NCBI GenBank assembly: GCA_963674825.1
Contig: OY771587.1
Coordinates: 2,720,001 to 2,784,000 of the forward strand
Reading direction: 5' to 3'
Length of the DNA: 64,000 bases
Origin: Candidatus Cloacimonadales bacterium
GTDB taxonomy: Bacteria > Cloacimonadota > Cloacimonadia > Cloacimonadales > JAIOQZ01
Position numbers and translations under genes: made by a program. Shown here piece after piece: positions 42,365-63,369 of the stretch. Positions within the stretch are counted from its first letter, which is position 1. Each line of letters opens with the position of its first letter. Under the pieces are notes generated by a model. That model was given only the letters and a program-made list of their open reading frames with translations. It did not search any database and was not told the origin of the DNA.

Positions 42365-42445
42365 CCCCCCTTAGTCCCCCCCCTTGTCAGGGTGGTGGGA
42401 GGAAAGACCCTCACCCCAGCCCTCTCCCATAAATGGGCGAGGGGG
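42364..42445. repeat. Two C-rich/G-rich REP-like units
   Basis: ACCCCCCTTAGTCCCCCCCCTTGTCAGGGTGG and CCCTCACCCCAGCCCTCTCCCATAAATGGGCGAGGGGG, in a convergent intergenic gap. Confidence 0.65.
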
Positions 42446-42470: not shown

Positions 42471-42608
42471 GCCATCCACCCGCATCTACGCCCGATCCCG
42501 CGGCTAACGTGGATATACCGCGACTTCGTAACTATCGGACACGAGAATTAAACCGCGGAACACCACGCCAGCCGCGCGATCAAACGAATCTGCTGGGTGG
42601 AGTGTGGC
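42471..42608 (-). ncRNA. Candidate structured RNA/ssDNA element, copy A (family unknown)
   Basis: Long nested hairpin, homologous to 61692-61817 with compensatory stem changes. G-U pairs favour the minus strand. Confidence 0.6.
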
Positions 42609-42609
42609 T

Positions 42610-45600
42610 TTATTTCAGCAACAATATCTTCCGCGTGTTATCGACTTTCCCCGTCTGCATCCTGACGAAGTAAATTCCGCTCGAGACCTGCTTCCCAACC
42701 TGATTCGTGCCTTTCCATGTCACCTGATAAGAGCCTGCTTCAAGGCGATCGTCCAGGATCCTCGTCACCCGTTGTCCGCGAATGTTGTAGATGTCGATGG
42801 TCACATTGCGATCCGCACTTAATGAGAAGCGGATGTTGGTCTCAGGATTGAACGGATTCGGGAAATTGCCGATCAGGCGATCCGATGCGATTGGCGCTTC
42901 TGCGGTGTTGTCACCACCTATCGCAGTGACGTGATCGCCAGCTCCGAAGGCCGGTACGGCAGTATATGTGAGGTTGTTACCACCGCCATCCATTGCCTGA
43001 ATGCTCAGGTCGATCAGGCAGGAATCGCTGGTGACGAATTCGCTGATATCAGCTGAAAATGCCTTGCCACTCACAAAGTAATCCACATTATCAATCTCAC
43101 CGACTACCCCGAACGGCACTTCCTGCCATTCTTCTTCGCCGTTGATTCGAAGCGCGAGTAAGATGTCTTCGTTGTCGATCGGATCGTAGTAATACCCGTT
43201 CTCGCTGTATTCACCATCGGTAAGGCAAAATCGGAGGAACGTCGTTTCTCCGGGATTGATCTCACCCAGCGGGACGCCGTCTTCATCGGTGAAGAACAGC
43301 CGGTTTAGCATGGGTGGACATTTACGTTGCTGAGCTGTGTTGAAGTGGTAAAGAACCTTTGTATTGCCCTGGATGTCGTCGAAAGAGTAGTCGTCAAAAT
43401 TCATCTCCAGTTCGTATCCTCCGGCTGCTGGCAAGTAAACCTCGTCAGTGCCCAGCATACCATTGAATACTTCACTACCGTTCTGGTTGCGCAGAACAAA
43501 GGGCAGGCGACTCTCGCTGTAGAAATAGTTGCTGCCTACACCGTCGCTGATCGTGTGATTAACTTCGATACCCGATGCCGTGATGTAGCACGGGACATTG
43601 ACCAGGAAGGGATAGTGGCCGACATACATGGTTTCGCCGATAGGGTATCCGGGTTCGAGTTCCGAGGGAAAACCATTGCGGGAGAAAGCAATCTGGTTGT
43701 TCTGAAGGCGTAAAGGCGGAGGGGTGCCCGCGATAAATTCTTCATCGTCAATCCACCTCTGGTAAAAACTCAGAGAGCTGCCGCGAGGACCGGAATAATC
43801 TCCCTGCATCAAGATGTGGCTGCCCCAGATGCCTTGTTTATCGAAGTACACATCCGGGAATGTCATCCCCATCATGAATCCACCTCCGATCGATGACCAC
43901 ACCAGGGGCATCGGATTGATCTGGAAGTGGTCCCATCCAAAAAAGGACATCACGAGATTGGCTTCACGGAAGCCATTCGGATCGTTCTGGATTGTCATGT
44001 CGCTATCGATACCGTAGAACGTGTCGAACATCATAACGTGGAAGTTCTTCTGCGCATCCCAGTGGGAGAATCCGATGTTGAATTCTGTTTCCGGAGGGAA
44101 ATAATCCGCCTGGAACTCGTGGATATTGAAGTTCATGAATGAGTACGAACGTCTGGCGCTTGGGAAGTAGATGTTCAGATAATAGAAATGCTCACCATAA
44201 CTATCGATCAGGTCGCCCGATTCAGTGTAGCCGTTAACGTTGATCGTGTTGAAATCGTGTTCACCGCTGACGTCGAGCAGAAAACTCCCCGCGTCGATAT
44301 GAAGATCGTCAACGCACACAAACTGAGAGACCTCTCCTGTATTGCGCGAGAAGAAAACGTATTCGTCGCCAGCAATGACGTCGAGCTGATAGAGGTAGGG
44401 GCTTAGCTCGACCGCGTCGCTTTTACGATAGGAATTTCGTTCGTTGAAAAGGTAGAAACTCGCGCTTGATGAATAATGCAGGATTTGAACACCGGTTACT
44501 TTAGTGATCGTCCAGGGGATTCTCCAGTCTCGATTGGAAGCGCTGATCGTTATCCAATCGGTGAAGACATCCAGATCGTCGATGGTCATCTCCTGATTGT
44601 TCACTTCGAGTTGAACGACGATTTCAGTAGATTCTCCCGGTAAAAGTATGGTGCTCTGCGGTGCAAAGTTCATCCCCAGCGCTGGGATCGGTGATTCCGC
44701 TGAAAAATTCAAAGCGATGGATTCGCCTGAGACGTTGCTGACATGCAGCGTGTCGATGAAGCTTACATTGACGACGTTATCCCCGACAACAGCGGTTGTG
44801 TCTGGAGCGAAATTCAGGATAGCCGGTTCGAACAGAACCTTGGGATCAACGGCGGCCATGGCATCGATTCGTCCACCACCTTGCTGCATGATGTCGCAGT
44901 CGATATCCACAGCGTTATTGACCATCGCAGAGCAGATCATTTCCGGTTGCCAGTCAGGGTGAATCTGCTTGATCAGAGCGCTGACACCCGACACATGCGG
45001 TGCTGCCATGGATGTACCGCTCATGGTGCGGGTTCCGCCTCCGGGGTAGGTCGATGTGATATTGAATCCCGGTGCACACAGCTCGGGTTTGACGGCATAG
45101 TTAATCAGGTTGGGGCCTTCGGAGCTGAAGGTTGTCAGTTCATCCCCGAGCGTTGTTGCTCCGACAGCGATAGCACCGGCGGCGCATGCGGGAGAGCCGA
45201 TCGACATGAAGTTAGCGTAGTTTCCTGCCGAGACGCAGAATGTGACGCCCAGCGCATTTGCGTTATCCAGTGCGGTACAAACTGCGTCGTTAGGATTTCC
45301 GCTGCTTGAGCCGAGACTGAGGTTGGCGATATCCACGTGGTCCGACGGATCGTTGTCGTCGTTGGGATCCACGCAGTACTCGATACCGGAAATTACGGTG
45401 ATGGAAGAACCCTGACCACTTGCGTTCAGCACACGAACTGCCAGTAGCGACGCATCTGGAGCGACGCCTCTTAAATTTTCGTCCTCAGCCGCGATAATTC
45501 CGGCAACGTGGGTGCCATGGCCGTTCTCGTCCATCGGGTCGCTGTCTTCATCGATAAAATCGTAGCCACCCACGACCTTGAAGTCAGGCCCGAACCCATC

Positions 45601-46155
45601 ACCAAGCGATGGGTGGGTATAATCGATACCGCTATCGAGAACTGCGACGAGGACGCCTTCGCCTGTCGCGCCATACTGCTGCCATACCTGATCTGCGCCA
45701 ATGTGCGGAACGCTCTCTGTGATATTGCCCTGGTAAATTAGGCTCCTGTGAAGTCTTTTTACATATGATAGTTGCTCGATTCTGTCCCGAACAGCCAGCG
45801 GAGCAATAATTTCGATACCGAAAAAGAGTTTGTAGCACTGCTTGCCCGTGAATGTGTCAGGCAAGTCACGATAGCGCGCTTTGAGGGGCTCAGTAATTGC
45901 AAGAAGGTCGCTCTGAAAGCGGCTGAACATCTCCTGATAGAAGTAAACGGATTGACGATCTTTGCTGACGAGGAGTGGTTGCTGGTCGAATTCGACGATG
46001 AATGTGTCGATTTCGGCTATGTCGTAGATGTCATATTCGAATCCGTCAACACTATCGGTTGCTTCGATTCTCTGGGTTCGGGTCAGTGGTTGATTGAGGC
46101 TGCTGAGGAAGGAAAACAGGGACAAGATCAGAATAATAGATGCAATTCGATTCAC
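42610..46155 (-). CDS. Secreted S8 (subtilisin/Vpr-like) serine peptidase with FlgD-Ig/T9SS-like C-terminal domain
   Basis: Signal peptide. Catalytic triad VLDSGID / GHGTHVAG / GTSMAAPHV. C-terminal GNFPNPFNPETNIRF...SSGIYFV. Confidence 0.93.
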   Translation of the reverse strand: MNRIASIILILSLFSFLSSLNQPLTRTQRIEATDSVDGFEYDIYDIAEIDTFIVEFDQQPLLVSKDRQSVYFYQEMFSRFQSDLLAITEPLKARYRDLPDTFTGKQCYKLFFGIEIIAPLAVRDRIEQLSYVKRLHRSLIYQGNITESVPHIGADQVWQQYGATGEGVLVAVLDSGIDYTHPSLGDGFGPDFKVVGGYDFIDEDSDPMDENGHGTHVAGIIAAEDENLRGVAPDASLLAVRVLNASGQGSSITVISGIEYCVDPNDDNDPSDHVDIANLSLGSSSGNPNDAVCTALDNANALGVTFCVSAGNYANFMSIGSPACAAGAIAVGATTLGDELTTFSSEGPNLINYAVKPELCAPGFNITSTYPGGGTRTMSGTSMAAPHVSGVSALIKQIHPDWQPEMICSAMVNNAVDIDCDIMQQGGGRIDAMAAVDPKVLFEPAILNFAPDTTAVVGDNVVNVSFIDTLHVSNVSGESIALNFSAESPIPALGMNFAPQSTILLPGESTEIVVQLEVNNQEMTIDDLDVFTDWITISASNRDWRIPWTITKVTGVQILHYSSSASFYLFNERNSYRKSDAVELSPYLYQLDVIAGDEYVFFSRNTGEVSQFVCVDDLHIDAGSFLLDVSGEHDFNTINVNGYTESGDLIDSYGEHFYYLNIYFPSARRSYSFMNFNIHEFQADYFPPETEFNIGFSHWDAQKNFHVMMFDTFYGIDSDMTIQNDPNGFREANLVMSFFGWDHFQINPMPLVWSSIGGGFMMGMTFPDVYFDKQGIWGSHILMQGDYSGPRGSSLSFYQRWIDDEEFIAGTPPPLRLQNNQIAFSRNGFPSELEPGYPIGETMYVGHYPFLVNVPCYITASGIEVNHTISDGVGSNYFYSESRLPFVLRNQNGSEVFNGMLGTDEVYLPAAGGYELEMNFDDYSFDDIQGNTKVLYHFNTAQQRKCPPMLNRLFFTDEDGVPLGEINPGETTFLRFCLTDGEYSENGYYYDPIDNEDILLALRINGEEEWQEVPFGVVGEIDNVDYFVSGKAFSADISEFVTSDSCLIDLSIQAMDGGGNNLTYTAVPAFGAGDHVTAIGGDNTAEAPIASDRLIGNFPNPFNPETNIRFSLSADRNVTIDIYNIRGQRVTRILDDRLEAGSYQVTWKGTNQVGKQVSSGIYFVRMQTGKVDNTRKILLLK

Positions 46156-56118: not shown

Positions 56119-59100
56119 TTAGTTGTCGGTATTCCGTTTTGATACTAGAGTTCTGGTTCCTGCCAGCGGAATCGCGATAAAGACCGTAGTTCCCTCACCT
56201 TCCTTGCTCTTGATCCAAATCTTGCCATGATGCAGTTCGGCAATACGGCGGGATGTTGCGAGTCCCAATCCCAGGCCGCTGGATCGGTATTCGACAAATC
56301 CGGACTTGTGTGACCACAGGTCGTTAACCTCATAGAACTTCTTGAAGATATTCTCCTGTTCATGAGCCGGAATACCGATTCCATTATCCTGAACGTAGAA
56401 GACAATGGATGGCCGCTCATCAATCTTCTCACGCGGGAATGCCGAATGACGAACGCCGATGACAATTTTACCGAAGTCCTTGGTGAAACGGATCGAATTC
56501 AGAACCAGATTGTATATCATCAAGTCGCATGCTTCCCAGTTGAGATCGACCCTTGGAAGATCTTCGGGAATTTCCAACTGGATGTGCATATGCCTGTCCA
56601 TGGAGACGAGTTCGGATTTCTTGGAGATTTCTTCCAGAAGCGGTCTCAGCTCGGTTTCTTCCTTCGCGATTGTCGAGATCATGCTGTACTTGTTCAGTGT
56701 CACGATATCCTTGGTTGTGGTCAGGAGCTTGTGGACACTTTCTTCCACCTTTGTGATGTTCTTGACCTGATCTTCATCCTGCCAGTCGATTTCTTTTCGC
56801 AAACGGTTCACATATCCCTGAAGTGTAACCAGCGGTGTATTCAGCTCGTGTGAAACGATGGCAATAAAGTTATCTTTTACTGTATCCAGCGTATGCAGTT
56901 CGAGGTTCTTTTTCATGAGTGCATCGTACTGACGGGCGTTCTTGAGGGCAATTGATACCTGGATCAACATGATGCGCATGAAATCCTTATTGAGTGGTAC
57001 TTCCTTGCGGGACGAATTGTAGTTGTCCAGATAAAGGAAGCCGTGGAGCTCATTGTCGACATAGATAGGCGCGCAATAGATCGAATGGAGCTGATAATCC
57101 TGCACGCTTATGGAATTCTTAAACGTGTTGTCCGCCATGGCGTTGATGGTGTAGATGGGTTCGCGCGTCATCTGCACTTCGCTAAGCAGCGTCTTACTGA
57201 TGTTAACCCACTCGGACAGTATCTGGTTTTTATCGTCCATCGCAACCTGATATACGTAGTTGCCGTATTCGTCTTTCTTAATCAGGAATCCGCGGCTGTA
57301 GCGGGTGAAATTGATAGCGAAAGCAACAATTTCGGTTTCGAGTTTGCCGATATCGTAGATGGAGAATAGCTCTTGCTCCACTTGCATGAGTTTTTGCAGC
57401 ATCTTCATCTTCTCGCTGAGCTCACCGTATTCTTTAATGCGCATCAGAATGGATGTGAGGTGCAGCTTGAGCGCTTTGATCATGCGCATTTCTACACCTT
57501 TGAAATCGAGTTCGCCGGCGTCGGCGATAATCAGGCAACCGACCATCGTAGCCCGGATGCGTAGCGGTGTGATGACCGTATGTGCGCCATCGATGAAACG
57601 GCTGATAATACGGTTTTCCTTGAGAGCTTTATCGATCAGGTCGTCTAATGATTCACTGAAAAGAGTCGCTTCATCCATATTGTATGTCATGAAAGGATCG
57701 CGTTTGTTCTGCCGCTCTTCGGTGAGAATGATAGCATAGCTTTCGGGGGCAAGCAGGTTGGTGATGGTCTTTTCAATGAAGAACTTCATCCGGTCGATCT
57801 CGTTCAGCTTGAAGAGATCATATAGCATCTCCTGCCAACCCTCTTTATAGAATTTGTTGCGGTTATCGATATGGGGCATCTTGATCTCACGGTAGTCGTC
57901 GCGATCAAGCGCCATGGTCAACTTGAATAACTTGGCATCGCCTTCGGGAATGCCTTTTACAACCTCTGCAACCGTTTCTTTCAACTCGGTAAAATATGCC
58001 TTTGCTTTCACCGGAGCGTTGAGCTCCGCATAGATTCGCACCAGGCGTTTCAGGATAGCAATCTCTAAAATGAAGTGCTCGTGACCACGGACTTTTTCCA
58101 ACTGGATCAGGAGATGACGCAGAACTTTACGAAGTGGAATGTGTTTAATCTGGAGATCAATATCGCAACGCAGGATATCGATTGAGCTCTTCCAGTAACT
58201 GAACGAGTATCGATCCACCATGACTTGAGCACGGTCTAGAGCGTTTGACGCATCCTCGGGAAGTTTCATACCGATGTAACATTCAGCCTCTCGGATGTTG
58301 AGGATCGCCTGGGCATACGCACTTTTGTTACGTTCTGAATAGGACTTTGCCTTCTGCAGATTGCTCAGTGCTTCTTTCCAGTCGCCAACCGCCATGAATC
58401 TCAGGCCTATGAGTTGGTACTGAAATTCTTCTTCGTGCAGTTTGGTGAATTCGAGGTTGGTGTTGTTCTGGATGAGTTGGTTGATCTGGCTGATGTTTCC
58501 AGTTTGATAAAGGTAGTAGAAATAGGTCTTTACCAGCGGATTGAAAGAGTCGATCTGGCCTTCGATGAGCTCGGGATTCGTCTTCTGAATGAAGTTGTAA
58601 TAGTGGCCGAATCCCTTGATCTTGCTCTTTGCGAGTGCGAGGTTGTTTTCGATCGAGTAGGTGTACTCGAGGCTTTCGATTTCTTTGTTGATCTTCGCGG
58701 CTCGATTGAGAGAAGCTTCGGCTTTCTGGAATTCGCCCAGCTTGATATAGGCTTCGCCGAAGTTGACATAGGCTAGAACTTGTCCGCGTTTCTGATCGAC
58801 TTTTTCGCAAATGTCAAGCGCTTTTGTGAAGAAATCGAAGGCGGTCTGGGTATCGCCCTGTCGCAGTGCGAGGTCACCGATATTATTGTAAACAAGTCCG
58901 AGCGAACGGACGTAATTCACCTTTTCCCAGATTTCACGAGCACGATGGAAGTTGGCATTCGCTTCGTCGATCGATTTCTGGCTGATGTAAAGGAACGCGA
59001 GGTTGTTGTATAACGAACCGAGTCGCACGAGGAAATTGGTATCGTCATTCATCTCGAGCCTGGAGATGAAGTCCTCGACCATGGAGATCGCTTCGCTTGG

Positions 59101-61608
59101 TTGCCCGGTTGAACCCATCACCAGCGCTTTGCGGTCCATGAACCACACCCTCAGATCTGGAAGCATAAAGACGGAGTCGTACATCTGAATGAGCTGGGTC
59201 GCAGTATCGAGATCGTTTATACGGAATGAGCTCCAGATAATACCGATAACGGCCATAATCCGTTGCTTTCCCGTGATAGATTTATTGAGCGCGATCTCGA
59301 ATTGCTCGCGTGCGGTTTGATATTTATCCAGCCCTAACTGGAATGTACCACGAATATAGTATTTTTCGAAGATGTCAGGCAACTCTTTGATTGTTTCGAT
59401 TCGCTCGAGTGCTTTCTGGATGAGGCCTGAGAGTTCAGCTTTCTCTGAAAAAACGGATAGGTCGTGCATGATTTCAGTGCTACTAAGCTCCACTTTTTCC
59501 GAGAAATCAATGGAGATCACTTCGCTGATCATGTAGAAAGCATCGTCCTGCATGTAGTGCTGATCGTATATCTGAACAAGGCGAAGTTTGTAGCGGCGCA
59601 CTTCACGGAAATCGCCAGCGAGCCTGGCATTATCGATGATGCCTCTACAAACGGCGATTTCATCAACCTCTTTATCGCTGTAGAAATCGACAACTTTCAG
59701 CGAAACCTCTTTGATCTCCTCATCCGAGCATTCGCTCAATAGACGTTGCTGTGCTTCCAGAAAGGCGAACTGGTAGAATTCATCACGAGCGACTAACACC
59801 TCGTTATTGAGTGCATCGTGAATCATGAAGAAGAAGGTCTTTTCGTCGATCCCGAGGATAGCCTGTACAAGCGATTTGGAGATGGGTGTTTTTACCGCAG
59901 ACAATTTTTGAAGATAGAAATAGACCTCTTCGGATAGATGCCCGAGGCGGTTGTAAACCGAGTGGAGCAGATGCTTTGGCAGAATATACTGGCTTGTATC
60001 GAGGTCCAAACTGAATTTTGCTCGTTTCCATATCTTTTTCTTATCCGTAAGGTCAATGAGTATATCGCGTACAAATACCGGAATACCGCTCGATCGTTTC
60101 CAGATAAAGCTGGCGAATGATTCCGGGACTTCGGTTTGTACAAGCTTTTCGACGTATTCTGTCGTCTGCTGACGCGAGAATGGCTCGATACGGAACTGGA
60201 TGGAGTGAATCAGGCCTTTGACCTTGCTCGGGTCATCGACACTGATAATAACCAGAATCTTACGCTCGATCATGTCTTTGGAGATCGAGTTCACGAAGTC
60301 GATGGTCTCACGAGTGAGGTATTGCCCCGCGCGAATAATGTAGATCAGCGGTTTATCTTCCGAGAGGTGGAAGAGGAAGTTGCGTGTCGAGGCAAAGTCC
60401 AGCCTCAGTTCTTCTTTGTTTTCGGTGAGTTCGCCGGCTGACTCCTCCGACTCGTAGAGGTATTTCCTCATCTTCTCTGAAATGTTCTTGAGGTCGGCAG
60501 ATAGCTTCTCGTTGGTCTTCATCGAGGAATAAAATTCTTTGATGAGAGCGAAGAATGGATCGGTATTGGTAGCGCTACACTCATAGTCGAATATGAAGTA
60601 GTCGTCGTTGAGCAGGTGGTAGCGGAAGAGGGAAAGCATGTTGTTCTTTCCGATACCATCACCACCTATGACGACTACCAGCTTGCCGTTTCCACCTTCC
60701 ACAAGCGGGATGTAGTCCAGGAGCTGATGTGCGTGGGTTTCGCGCACGAAGTACGAGCGGAATTTGAGCATTGTAACCGCGGAGCGCCGTTGCGAGAAGG
60801 GGTAATTCTTCAGCTGGATGCGGTTGATATAGCTGATGATACTCTCAATATCTGGATAGCGGTCACCAGGATTTTTCTCGAGCAGCGTGAGGATGAATTT
60901 CTCCAACTGCGGTGGGATGTCGCGGTTCAGTTCGCGCGGGAATTTCGGGATGAACGTCTGCTGATTTCCCTGGATGAGGTTGGTGATCTGCTCCACAGAG
61001 AAGGGATGCATACCGGTGGTAATCTTGTAGAGCGTGACCCCGAGCGAATAGTAATCACTGGCGAATTGTGCACCCTTACCAAGGTAAATTTCCGGCGCGA
61101 CATAGGGCAGGGAACCGCTAATTGTCTGCTGGCTCTTCTGGAAATCGATTTTAGCGAATCCGAAGTCGAGCACTTTCACAACAGGTTTGTTGCGTACGAT
61201 GTTATACATGATGTTTTCGGGCTTAAGGTCTTTGTGGACGATGTTCTGAAGATGCAGTGCGTTGAGTGCATAGCAAATCTGGACGATAATATCGTAAAGA
61301 AGCTCGATATTATATTTCTTGAACTTGAATGAGCTGAGGGAGCGTCCTTCACAGAATTCACTGAGATAATAGATATGCTTACCCATGTTACCGAAATTGA
61401 CTACCTGCAAGAGATTGGGGTGTTCGATCTTGGTAATATGGTGCATATCTTCGGCTGAGAAGCGCTCGTAAAACGCCTCGGAATCAAGTTTTTGGAACAA
61501 TTTCAGTGCGTAGATGTTGCCCGTGCGGATGTCCTGGACCTTGTAAACCGTTGCCCATAGGCCAGTTCCCATGCGCTCGATTACCTCATACCGGGAATCG
61601 ATTATCAT
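56119..61608 (-). CDS. Ser/Thr kinase - AAA/STAND-like - TPR - GAF-GAF - HisKA - HATPase multidomain kinase
   Basis: ATG 61608 after GGAGG. YALKL, HKDLKPEN, DFG, YVAPE; degenerate P-loop GGDGIGKN; TPRs (YNNIGDL); GAF (SIYCAPI...GFLYLDN); SHELNTPL, DNGIGI, GLGLGLA. Confidence 0.9.
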   Translation of the reverse strand: MIIDSRYEVIERMGTGLWATVYKVQDIRTGNIYALKLFQKLDSEAFYERFSAEDMHHITKIEHPNLLQVVNFGNMGKHIYYLSEFCEGRSLSSFKFKKYNIELLYDIIVQICYALNALHLQNIVHKDLKPENIMYNIVRNKPVVKVLDFGFAKIDFQKSQQTISGSLPYVAPEIYLGKGAQFASDYYSLGVTLYKITTGMHPFSVEQITNLIQGNQQTFIPKFPRELNRDIPPQLEKFILTLLEKNPGDRYPDIESIISYINRIQLKNYPFSQRRSAVTMLKFRSYFVRETHAHQLLDYIPLVEGGNGKLVVVIGGDGIGKNNMLSLFRYHLLNDDYFIFDYECSATNTDPFFALIKEFYSSMKTNEKLSADLKNISEKMRKYLYESEESAGELTENKEELRLDFASTRNFLFHLSEDKPLIYIIRAGQYLTRETIDFVNSISKDMIERKILVIISVDDPSKVKGLIHSIQFRIEPFSRQQTTEYVEKLVQTEVPESFASFIWKRSSGIPVFVRDILIDLTDKKKIWKRAKFSLDLDTSQYILPKHLLHSVYNRLGHLSEEVYFYLQKLSAVKTPISKSLVQAILGIDEKTFFFMIHDALNNEVLVARDEFYQFAFLEAQQRLLSECSDEEIKEVSLKVVDFYSDKEVDEIAVCRGIIDNARLAGDFREVRRYKLRLVQIYDQHYMQDDAFYMISEVISIDFSEKVELSSTEIMHDLSVFSEKAELSGLIQKALERIETIKELPDIFEKYYIRGTFQLGLDKYQTAREQFEIALNKSITGKQRIMAVIGIIWSSFRINDLDTATQLIQMYDSVFMLPDLRVWFMDRKALVMGSTGQPSEAISMVEDFISRLEMNDDTNFLVRLGSLYNNLAFLYISQKSIDEANANFHRAREIWEKVNYVRSLGLVYNNIGDLALRQGDTQTAFDFFTKALDICEKVDQKRGQVLAYVNFGEAYIKLGEFQKAEASLNRAAKINKEIESLEYTYSIENNLALAKSKIKGFGHYYNFIQKTNPELIEGQIDSFNPLVKTYFYYLYQTGNISQINQLIQNNTNLEFTKLHEEEFQYQLIGLRFMAVGDWKEALSNLQKAKSYSERNKSAYAQAILNIREAECYIGMKLPEDASNALDRAQVMVDRYSFSYWKSSIDILRCDIDLQIKHIPLRKVLRHLLIQLEKVRGHEHFILEIAILKRLVRIYAELNAPVKAKAYFTELKETVAEVVKGIPEGDAKLFKLTMALDRDDYREIKMPHIDNRNKFYKEGWQEMLYDLFKLNEIDRMKFFIEKTITNLLAPESYAIILTEERQNKRDPFMTYNMDEATLFSESLDDLIDKALKENRIISRFIDGAHTVITPLRIRATMVGCLIIADAGELDFKGVEMRMIKALKLHLTSILMRIKEYGELSEKMKMLQKLMQVEQELFSIYDIGKLETEIVAFAINFTRYSRGFLIKKDEYGNYVYQVAMDDKNQILSEWVNISKTLLSEVQMTREPIYTINAMADNTFKNSISVQDYQLHSIYCAPIYVDNELHGFLYLDNYNSSRKEVPLNKDFMRIMLIQVSIALKNARQYDALMKKNLELHTLDTVKDNFIAIVSHELNTPLVTLQGYVNRLRKEIDWQDEDQVKNITKVEESVHKLLTTTKDIVTLNKYSMISTIAKEETELRPLLEEISKKSELVSMDRHMHIQLEIPEDLPRVDLNWEACDLMIYNLVLNSIRFTKDFGKIVIGVRHSAFPREKIDERPSIVFYVQDNGIGIPAHEQENIFKKFYEVNDLWSHKSGFVEYRSSGLGLGLATSRRIAELHHGKIWIKSKEGEGTTVFIAIPLAGTRTLVSKRNTDN

Positions 61609-61691
61609 AAGTCCTCCCGAAAACATTTAATCAATTTACAATTGGCGGGATTCAATTGCTGTTGTCAAGGAATTCAGCCCAATAATGGCAT

Positions 61692-61817
61692 CCGCGCGCA
61701 TCTTCGTCCGATCGCTCCCACTCGCGTGGATATAATACACCATCAGACTACCGGATACGAGGATATGGTGTATAACACCACGCGAGCAGTCGCGAAACGA
61801 ACGAATCTGCTGCGCGG
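61692..61817 (-). ncRNA. Candidate structured RNA/ssDNA element, copy B (family unknown)
   Basis: Same conserved blocks and spacing as 42471-42608, with different but still complementary stems. Confidence 0.6.
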
Positions 61818-61932
61818 TGATTCGGGTATTGTGCTGAGAGCTGGAACGTAACCCTATGCTAACCGAAAAATTCATTGACGCCGCTGGAGCCCATTCTACT
61901 TTACGCCCAAACGTTAAATTGGGAGAAATCTC

Positions 61933-63369
61933 ATGCAGAAGATGCGAAAAAGCAGCCGTTGGTTGCAATGGATTCTACCGTTTTTGATGATGGTTCTGGC
62001 AGTGAATATCTCCGCCGAACAAGGCAAGAAGACCGAGGTGGTTTTCTGGCACGCGATGGGTGGTCCGCTTGGCGATGCGTTGATATCGCTGGTGGAAGAC
62101 TTCAATAGCACTCATCCCGATATCTATATCAAAGCGATCAACATGGGAAACTACTCCGCGCTTTCCACAAAGCTGATGGCGAGTATCCAGGCTGACGAGC
62201 AGCCGGATATCGCGCAAGCATTCGAATCGTGGATCGCGAACTTCATGGAGGCTGACAAGCTTGTGCCCATGGATGATTTTATCGCACAGGATGCCGAATT
62301 CCGCGCATCGCTGGATGATATTTTCCCCGTATTTATACAGAGCAATACGTTTGACGGGCGTCTTTGGGCGTTCCCGTTCAACAAGAGCGTCCGCGTGATG
62401 TACTACAATCGTGACGCCTTTTTCCGGCACGGACTCGATCCGTACTCCTGTCCCGAGACATGGGACGAATTTCGGGAGTATTGCCGGAAACTGACGGTCG
62501 ATGAAGACAACGATGGCGTTCCGGAGGTCTTTGGGACTACGTTCCCCGTGAGTGCATGGCAGTTCGAGAATCTGCTATTGCAGGCAGGCGGGGAAGTCAT
62601 GAGTCCCGACAACAGAACCCCTCTGTTCAATCAAGAACCGGGTGTGGAAGCGCTTAACTTCCTTTCCGCACTGCTGAACGAAGACAAGACGGCCTACCTC
62701 TCCACTGGCTACGAGGGTCAGAACGACTTTCTCGCCGGCAAGGTGGCGATGGTGGAAGGCTCGAGCGTTTCGATGGCGTACCTGCAACTGACCGGCATTA
62801 ACTTCTACATGGGAATCGGTCCCATCCCGGTCAGAGAAACCAAGCGCAATATCATCAGCGGAACGAACGTGGTGATCTTCCGTGGGCAGGATCCTAAGGT
62901 CGAGAAAGCAGCATGGGAATTCGTAAAGTGGTTTACCGAAGCACCGCAGACGGCGAAGTGGTCGTATGACACCTACTACATGCCGGTGCGAAAGAGTGCG
63001 TTTGACGAACCGGTCTTGAAAGAACGACTGGAGACATATCCCGAGATCGCGGCGGTCTATGACCAATTGAACTATTCGACGTTCGAGCCGCCGATCGCGG
63101 AGTGGTATTCTGCCCGTAAACAGCTTGAAGAGAATGTGATCGAGAAGGTTCTGCGCGGTAAGCTCAGTCCGCAGGACGCGCTGGACAAAGCCGCAGACAA
63201 GATCGAGCAGGAATTGAAGAGCACCGGTGAGAAAGGCGGTTCCAGCCACCGCAAGGTGAAAGAACACAGCTATTTTCTCGAACTGATGGTGATTCTGGGG
63301 ATGATTCTGGTGATCATCGCGATTGTCTGGCTGATCTCCTGGATCAAGAAACGGGCCGAGGGTTATTGA
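61933..63369 (+). CDS. Carbohydrate-type (CUT1/UgpB-like) ABC substrate-binding protein with a C-terminal membrane anchor
   Basis: VVFWHAMGG, PDIAQ, PFNKS..MYYNRD, PETWDE, AWEFVKW, plus a C-terminal hydrophobic helix followed by KKR. Confidence 0.9.
   Translation: MQKMRKSSRWLQWILPFLMMVLAVNISAEQGKKTEVVFWHAMGGPLGDALISLVEDFNSTHPDIYIKAINMGNYSALSTKLMASIQADEQPDIAQAFESWIANFMEADKLVPMDDFIAQDAEFRASLDDIFPVFIQSNTFDGRLWAFPFNKSVRVMYYNRDAFFRHGLDPYSCPETWDEFREYCRKLTVDEDNDGVPEVFGTTFPVSAWQFENLLLQAGGEVMSPDNRTPLFNQEPGVEALNFLSALLNEDKTAYLSTGYEGQNDFLAGKVAMVEGSSVSMAYLQLTGINFYMGIGPIPVRETKRNIISGTNVVIFRGQDPKVEKAAWEFVKWFTEAPQTAKWSYDTYYMPVRKSAFDEPVLKERLETYPEIAAVYDQLNYSTFEPPIAEWYSARKQLEENVIEKVLRGKLSPQDALDKAADKIEQELKSTGEKGGSSHRKVKEHSYFLELMVILGMILVIIAIVWLISWIKKRAEGY

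Follow-up and report, generated by a model that had tools for sequence, protein, structure and literature searches.

The window examined here, a stretch of 64,000 nucleotides from a Candidatus Cloacimonadales bacterium (assembly GCA_963674825.1, contig OY771587.1, positions 2,720,001 to 2,784,000 of the forward strand), carries two copies, A and B, of a long hairpin element. Copy A lies between convergent genes, one of which encodes an S8 peptidase (Peptidase_S8, E = 1.7e-62) and ends with its stop codon 1 nt from the element; copy B is intergenic, with a kinase gene and a solute-binding protein gene as divergent neighbours. In window coordinates the features are:

42408..42445, minus strand: palindromic repeat of a different family, which we take to be BoxC-like; a component of the repeat mosaic outside the element
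42471..42608, minus strand (the folded strand, here the leading-strand template): copy A, long class, scoring 135.9 bits against a model of which it is a training member
42475-42481 paired with 42595-42601 (span 42475..42601), minus strand: basal stem of copy A; its letters differ among copies, with pairing preserved
42578-42594 paired with 42482-42497 (span 42482..42594), minus strand: outer conserved box of copy A (137 anchored copies), made up in order of a bulged A, 3 bp, a tandem G·A/A·G and a helix that contains T·G wobbles in tandem
42559-42566 paired with 42509-42517 (span 42509..42566), minus strand: inner conserved box of copy A, with a GTGG/CCAC stem, a bulged T and a small internal loop, the loop strands being swapped between the short classes
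42527..42549, minus strand: apical loop of copy A; a GNA/GNNA loop stands here in the short classes and a different sequence in part of the G001 copies
42610-46155, minus strand: S8 peptidase gene
56119-61626, minus strand: Ser/Thr-His kinase gene beside copy B
61688..61822, minus strand: copy B, long class
61698-61713 paired with 61795-61810: outer box of copy B
61726-61734 paired with 61774-61781: inner box of copy B
61933-63369, plus strand: solute-binding protein gene beside copy B

The kinase gene, downstream of copy B, encodes an 1835-aa fusion protein with Ser/Thr kinase, TPR, GAF and histidine kinase domains. The sequence blocks that the original prediction had found common to both copies are all present: GCATCT begins at 42482 in copy A and at 61698 in copy B, the terminal block of 13 nt has its last letter at 42595 and 61812, the block identities of 15/18, 13/14 and 13/13 hold, and the stems lie where they had been placed. 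A cmscan of the whole window gave no Rfam match at the gathering score, in keeping with the prediction's view of an unrecognised family; at E ≤ 10 there were weak matches only, the best of them near copy A (17.9 bits) and copy B (16.7 bits) being far under the cut-offs.

The element had been described as present twice. Both copies are real, but an iterated nhmmer search shows them to be two of 39 dispersed intergenic loci in this genome (G000, a single contig of 3.89 Mb). Full-length copies account for 33 of these loci, 16 in the long class, to which A and B belong, 5 and 11 in two short classes and 1 unclassified, and the remaining loci are 220-nt composites or truncations. In each of three other genomes of the same genus (G001, G002 and G003) the model finds at least 22 matches; exact inner-box matches number 54, 17 and 22, respectively, and 62, 17 and 36 matches were collected from sampled stretches, which cover the genomes in part and do not give totals. 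With no more than 22 candidates per genome scored, model R1 matches 4 of 141 genomes, all in the genus. The inner-box pattern occurs in 7 of 232 genomes of the phylum, the three single matches outside the genus having a fold unlike the element, and among all GTDB representatives 62 of 64 loci with the pattern fall in three congeners titled Cloacimonadales, the other 2 being unrelated chance matches; such exact-pattern searches would overlook diverged relatives. A metagenome scan returned 1 match, a non-member; viral contig scans returned 0 and 4 matches with no member by score, the two looked at further sitting inside ORFs; and blastn against phages and plasmids did not find the element. Confined to 1 of the 66 genera searched, it is a genus-restricted intergenic hairpin-repeat family. 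A search of the open-access literature yielded no published description of it. On a separate point, one G002 copy (L212:2460-2600, contig C10) has a basal stem of the G001 type, and two G002 loci map to one G000 gene pair; contigs C9 and C10 of G002 may come from another strain or species.

We use the name R strand for the one that reads GCAGATT...AGATGC; in the window this is the minus strand. Folded as RNA, the minus strands of both A and B reach z = -7.98, and the plus strands -5.41 and -5.90; folded as DNA, the values for A and B are -6.0 and -6.5 (minus) against -4.9 and -5.9 (plus), and in none of these eight tests did any of 200 shuffles fold as well. Across the family the R strand folds better than its complement in 141 of 144 copies as RNA and in 132 of 144 as DNA. 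The element forms a modular rod of 90-230 nt in which a variable basal stem is followed by the bulged A, the outer box with its tandem G·A/A·G and tandem T·G, a variable spacer, the inner box with GTGG/CCAC, bulged T and small loop, a variable stem and a tip. On the R strand G·T exceeds A·C by 39:2 in the inner stem and by 46:3 just outside the inner box, with no such excess in the basal stem (39:29). Since G·T so clearly outnumbers A·C in the inner stem, the minus-strand form is the folded one, as had been suspected.

Among the 16 long copies of G000, double changes occur at 26 of 47 pairs, which 0 of 500 shuffles match on any measure, whereby the structure used was written by hand and relatedness among the copies inflates such tests. 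A set of 34 G001 copies aligned without structure shows double changes at 20 of 37 pairs; these copies were chosen by exact pattern, so that the invariance of their inner box is built in. The basal stem covaries as well, with double changes in 10 of 16 at one of its pairs. The spacer holds a GNA/GNA 3x3 loop in 54 of 121 copies; among the alternatives at this place, the commonest are Watson-Crick paired. The original prediction took covarying stems as a mark of selection on a single-stranded structure. Its premise of a constrained fold is supported, but arm-to-arm template switching, as described in PMC8794818, can produce double changes without stepwise selection. Because template switching can create double changes, the stronger evidence for selection lies in the fixed arm asymmetries (tandem G·A, T·G, bulged T), which are preserved in most of the 137 anchored copies. 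Taken together, the conserved asymmetric boxes and the covarying stems support selection on the single-stranded fold. Two readings of the motifs were dropped, a CsrA-type GGA loop, as GGA is not conserved in the apical loop, and a kink-turn, as the G·A pairs have no adjoining 3-nt bulge.

All 39 copies in G000 are intergenic or touch a gene end. Hereby, 17 lie in convergent gaps, 9 in tandem gaps with R sense, 8 in tandem gaps with R antisense and 5 in divergent gaps, while the background of 951 gaps comprises 115 convergent, 258 tandem sense, 310 tandem antisense and 268 divergent. Copy A, 1 nt past a stop codon, and the 26 of 39 copies that have a same-strand gene upstream are what a cis-acting mRNA element (a 3'-UTR stabiliser, leader or riboswitch) would lead one to expect. 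The upstream-gene excess is, however, due to the convergent gaps (17/39 versus 115/951); in tandem gaps sense and antisense copies are nearly equal in number, five copies lie between divergent genes, and the neighbouring genes have no common function and cluster only into large host families. The 3'-UTR protein-binding element that had been proposed is contradicted by these numbers, and the position next to the S8 stop codon, which we confirm, is incidental. Orientation of the element follows the fork and replichore, not the transcript, and an mRNA element of this kind is thus largely refuted and scarcely credible.

The origin and the direction of replication in G000 were fixed by the skew minimum (1.656 Mb), dnaA (1.658 Mb) and the direction of an rRNA operon; no dif-like motif was found in the 302 loci examined, so the terminus was placed by skew alone. 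R carries lagging-strand sequence and hence is the leading-strand template, which is the case at 37 of the 39 loci (p = 2.8e-9), the two exceptions being one truncated and one rearranged copy. The same polarity is seen in G001 at 43 of 60 copies (p = 0.001; origin at dnaA, terminus from skew), or 24 of 37 by local skew, with 28% of copies facing the opposite way; in G002 at 17 of 17 places by local skew (18 rows, one place appearing twice); and in G003 at 27 of 33 matches by local skew or, with global assignment, at 25 of 34 full-length copies. The local-skew call is correct in 182 of 194 G000 windows, and G002 and G003 have sites in common and do not count as independent. By a crude ORF caller, 51.7% of 2,847 ORFs in G000 are leading, and other repeats are unpolarised (14/25, 6/11 and 3/10, the last being BoxC-like copies not beside the element). 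As the G-rich R strand sits on the C-rich strand, mutational skew runs counter to the observed pattern. As an observation on the genome itself, G000 shows a clear GC skew yet has only this share of leading ORFs. Copies are spread such that the two largest copy-free gaps in G000, 1.457-2.023 Mb and 3.056-3.686 Mb, cover origin and terminus; G001 has no such gaps. Biased loss or biased insertion could be the source of the polarity. Copies with the folding strand on the lagging-strand template might be lost more often, or new copies might enter as nascent lagging strand. A purge of wrong-way copies predicts that these are younger, and their nearest-neighbour identity is no different (p = 0.76 in G001, p = 0.40 in G003).

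A family-specific polarity that recurs in all four genomes would also be expected of a domesticated host signal, that is a replication-polar ssDNA or cruciform site for restart, gap formation or topology, for which density and orientation matter and exact position does not. At orthologous sites the element is, judged by eye, more conserved than the adjoining intergenic DNA, it has no transposase partner, both G000 exceptions are damaged copies, and the E. coli RRS is an earlier case of an oriented ssDNA structure that has a role in the chromosome (PMC11194060). Such a signal would sit poorly with a family found in 1 of 66 genera, with high site turnover, with the 28% wrong-way copies of G001, and with tandem duplicates, truncations and nested insertions that resemble selfish DNA; the RRS, moreover, consists of two position-conserved G-quadruplex copies that act on the lagging-strand template. 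We consider a host role possible but unlikely.

The nature of the folded molecule is indicated by the tips. Among 26 short-class copies, 23 have a short tip and 3 an extended stem, and the short tips are C-GAA-G in 18 cases, C-GCA-G in 2, and T-GAA-A, C-GATA-G and C-GTTA-G in 1 each; all are thus GNA or GNNA. The usual tip loops of RNA are GNRA and UUCG, and neither occurs among these 23. In DNA, d(GNA) triloops closed by C:G are unusually stable (PMC3201870), and d(cGNNAg) is a selected stable DNA tetraloop according to the title of a reference in the same source. As the tip-bearing copies are related, many of them coming from one G000 subfamily, they amount to about five independent variants; copies A and B have a large apical loop without a GNA tip. 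Because the tips are of a type known to be stable in DNA, the substrate is likely ssDNA rather than RNA.

A multicopy structured RNA with the minus-strand sequence, either a family of small RNA genes or an element that moves by reverse transcription, would account for the G·U pairs, the tandem G·A pairs and the GNA/GNA 3x3 loops, all of which are RNA motifs too, and for a strand difference in folding energy that is larger with RNA parameters; bcr1 of Bacillus cereus, as portrayed in PMC3184786, is a transcribed mobile repeat with compensatory changes. The tips are GNA triloops or GATA/GTTA instead of GNRA or UUCG, a search around copy B, a weak test, gave no sigma-70-like promoter or terminator, and all such transcripts would run head-on to the fork. 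In addition, no reverse transcriptase gene is present in G000 or adjoins a copy, and there is no Rfam match. An RNA of this kind thus appears improbable.

The two short classes are alike except that the inner box's two loop strands, 6 nt each, have changed places between the arms. An inversion of double-stranded DNA would give reverse complements, which were not seen in this comparison; in the folded strand, the swap amounts to the same internal loop turned by 180 degrees. Such a flip could result from recombination in the folded state, or from slippage or conversion between two pseudo-direct repeats, and an inner box that works either way round suggests a two-fold symmetric reader. In one G001 copy (L202) the 5' outer arm has been converted to the complement of the 3' arm, which fits template switching as outlined in PMC8794818 and PMC6357072; loss of arm asymmetry is rare among the 137 anchored copies. 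Copy B and a copy at 587,909 of G000 (L006:2001-2138), which lies on the other replichore, are nearly identical in their interiors, and this suggests recent conversion or copying.

Template switching, which according to PMC8794818 can make and repair stems, and the perfectly complementary arm of L202 could also be read, together with the lack of any enzyme found, as signs of an extinct element. Its inert relics would be upheld as hairpins by template switching and gene conversion, and the polarity would stem from physical deletion of the stronger hairpin on the lagging-strand template. Template switching should, however, erase asymmetries, and the tandem G·A, the T·G and the bulged T persist in most of the 137 copies. 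With DNA parameters, moreover, both strands fold strongly (medians of -35.5 kcal/mol for R and -31.0 kcal/mol for the complement), which is a small gap for a 37:2 bias, and near-identical copies occur at unrelated loci. We regard inert relics as very unlikely.

Comparison of syntenic sites points to turnover. Sites in G000 that correspond to G003 copies are empty in 15 cases, filled in 2 and not adjacent in 8; for G001 copies the figures are 5, 1 and 36, and for G002 copies 7 (distinct), 1 and 3, with one row duplicated. Between G002 and G003, 9 of 12 comparable sites are common, and 3 of 12 G003 sites are empty in G002. At these three the whole repeat mosaic has been lost or replaced, and neither they nor one G003/G000 site offer a clean junction, as the flanks are too diverged or the mosaic is gone; no target duplication is seen at the three empty G002 sites. 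At 10 of 10 sites that it shares with the element, the BoxC-like palindrome is found downstream, on the element's strand. One pair of copies at unrelated G003 loci scores 0.97, with identity extending into the downstream palindrome, and at one orthologous site the class has switched, the copy being long in G003 and short in G000. One G002 copy has the upstream flank of copy B on one side and, on its other side, the flank that lies downstream of the copy at 392,813. Synteny breaks accompany 36 of 42 G001 copies versus 39 of 82 control gaps (p = 3.5e-5) and, without enrichment, 8 of 25 G003 copies versus 17 of 75 control gaps, the control gaps not being length-matched in either case. The copies are embedded in REP mosaics. 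In contigs from three DNA runs, which cannot reveal rare events, no joint removing copy A or B was present.

A search for a mobilising enzyme near the copies gave no candidate. Among 422 ORFs neighbouring copies there is no recurrent mobile gene, and the element is absent from 68 loci around genes for a Y1 transposase, RT, GIY-YIG, DUF559 or an integrase and from 16 IS110/GxxExxY loci. Taken by themselves, 17 Y1 loci lack it, and Y1 loci carry other repeats. G001, which has the most copies, shows no Y1_Tnp match; RT (RVT_1) is missing from G000, and five RT loci in relatives lack the element. TnpB was found in 0 of 5 genomes, the TnpA/TnpB linkage tests covering the relatives only in part. The integron integrase TIGR02249 exceeds the cut-off in 0 of 8 family genomes and also in 0 of 14 controls, so that the sensitivity of this search is not established, and a search for the Y2 transposase of IS91/ISCR elements gave 0 of 8 genomes with control genomes likewise unmatched. 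Y1, RT, tyrosine recombinases, GIY-YIG, DUF559, GxxExxY, IS110 and TnpB were accordingly set aside as cognate enzymes, none being linked to the element. Other palindromes in these genomes do flank nuclease genes of their own (RAYT, DUF559 and GIY-YIG).

Weighing these findings, we lean towards a non-autonomous mobile element that acts as folded ssDNA, is read by protein, is coupled to the fork and is moved in trans. The original prediction had listed a non-autonomous ssDNA element among its options, and this option is now favoured, save that no HUH or other partner lies by any copy examined and that the polarity is opposite to the known HUH rule. A protein reader is indicated because bulges and G·A/T·G features are preserved while the stems change and because the inner duplex works both ways; such a protein, probably two-fold symmetric, would recognise these features. 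Excision or insertion would be coupled to the fork, and template switching together with gene conversion would rewrite stems and exchange interiors between copies.

Among known systems, an attC-like architecture with a polarity opposite to that of IS608 describes the element best. In attC sites a single strand folds, with conserved unpaired bases and variable stems and terminal structure, and the element shares this plan. In sedentary integrons the folded attC strand in 25 of 30 cases lies on the leading-strand template (PMC5371416), as does the folded strand here, and one exchange of flanks has taken place at an element. Unlike attC sites in a tandem array of one-gene cassettes, the element is dispersed singly over 39 loci in all four gene-orientation contexts, has no R-box consensus (by eye) and neighbours ordinary chromosomal genes. 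Elements of the IS200/IS605 family likewise use strand-specific ssDNA hairpins with replication-linked orientation, but the active strand of IS608 and ISDra2 lies on the lagging-strand template (both as reported in PMC5027513) and the folding strand here on the leading-strand template; the element was not found to have distinct left and right ends with an ORF between them, and TnpB is lacking in 5 of 5 genomes.

REP, REPIN and BIME sequences with their RAYTs resemble the family as small intergenic palindromes with convergent-gap enrichment, mosaics and proposed ssDNA mobility (PMC3733652, PMC3116915 and PMC6006769). A REP, however, measures 20-40 nt as against a modular rod of 90-230 nt; the element has no GTAG/CGTC tag at the stem base (alignments, by eye), and its arms are not two inverted copies of one REP, given the fixed asymmetries in most of 137 copies. 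The RAYTs of G000 are flanked by other repeats, and the co-resident REPs lack the element's strong replichore polarity. The bcr1 repeat may have a replication-strand bias. It is described in PMC3184786 as an approximately 155-bp, transcribed, cruciform-forming repeat of the Bacillus cereus group with 5-bp direct repeats, and shares with the element the lineage-specific dispersal, non-conserved positions and compensatory changes; compared by description, the element differs in that no direct repeat is seen and in its rod with DNA-type tips. The RRS, too, is an oriented chromosomal sequence with an ssDNA structure tied to fork passage, but its two 222-bp repeats are conserved in position, form G-quadruplexes and use the lagging-strand template (PMC11194060), whereas the element has at least 39 mobile-looking copies, mostly at non-conserved positions, in which no G-quadruplex was noted. 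Finally, a MITE would have sequence-conserved terminal inverted repeats in place of a covarying basal stem, and for a derivative of a group II intron or retroelement there is no RT linked to the element.

Small dispersed structured repeats are an already known kind; what is new here is that leading-template polarity and DNA-type tips occur together with a flippable inner box and no known mobiliser. To the question of how small palindromic repeats originate and spread in bacteria, the family adds a case of polarity opposite to that of the HUH elements compared, which favour the lagging-strand template. It is polarised although genes and other repeats of the genome are not, and it has no recognisable transposase or integrase. 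A bolder and rather doubtful version of the attC-like reading holds that the copies are ssDNA sites dispersed over the whole chromosome and read by a structure-specific recombinase or replication factor not described before. The system would hold the folding strand to the leading-strand template, turn the inner duplex of the folded hairpin and make copies serve as rearrangement points. If true, this would make the family a new class of replication-polar ssDNA element or a genome-shuffling system. For finding a new ssDNA-processing enzyme or replication-linked factor, it provides a defined substrate with folded strand, conserved bulges, DNA-type loops and natural flipped and arm-corrected variants. 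Screens for RNA motifs should take into account that strong covariation with G·U may stem from DNA structure.

Several other repeats were encountered in these genomes. The BoxC-like family (window 42408-42445; L277, L278) also borders DUF559 genes, and another palindrome borders small GIY-YIG genes (L258, L260). Y1 transposase genes of G000 (L002:758-2052, L003:1389-2166 and L001:1221-1425) have their own REP arrays or 30-nt terminal inverted repeats, similar to REPtrons and TIRtrons, and one G000 Y1 gene immediately adjoins a xerC/D-like gene. Two IS110-family elements have 17 copies in G002 (L304-L308), and at each of the four loci examined another long palindromic repeat, possibly their target, is no more than about 1 kb away; the hairpins flanking them belong to this other palindrome and not to the element. 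A second dispersed repeat of approximately 116 nt, with two hairpins, gave 11 matches in G001, 7 of them lagging, so that it is not clearly polarised. It stands alone in G001-G003 (L188:171-283, L115:14242-14355, L253:6308-6421, L212:2224-2336, L255, L243 and L101) and is nested in the element in three G000 composites (L024:2070-2185, L037:2041-2155 and L031:2038-2152).
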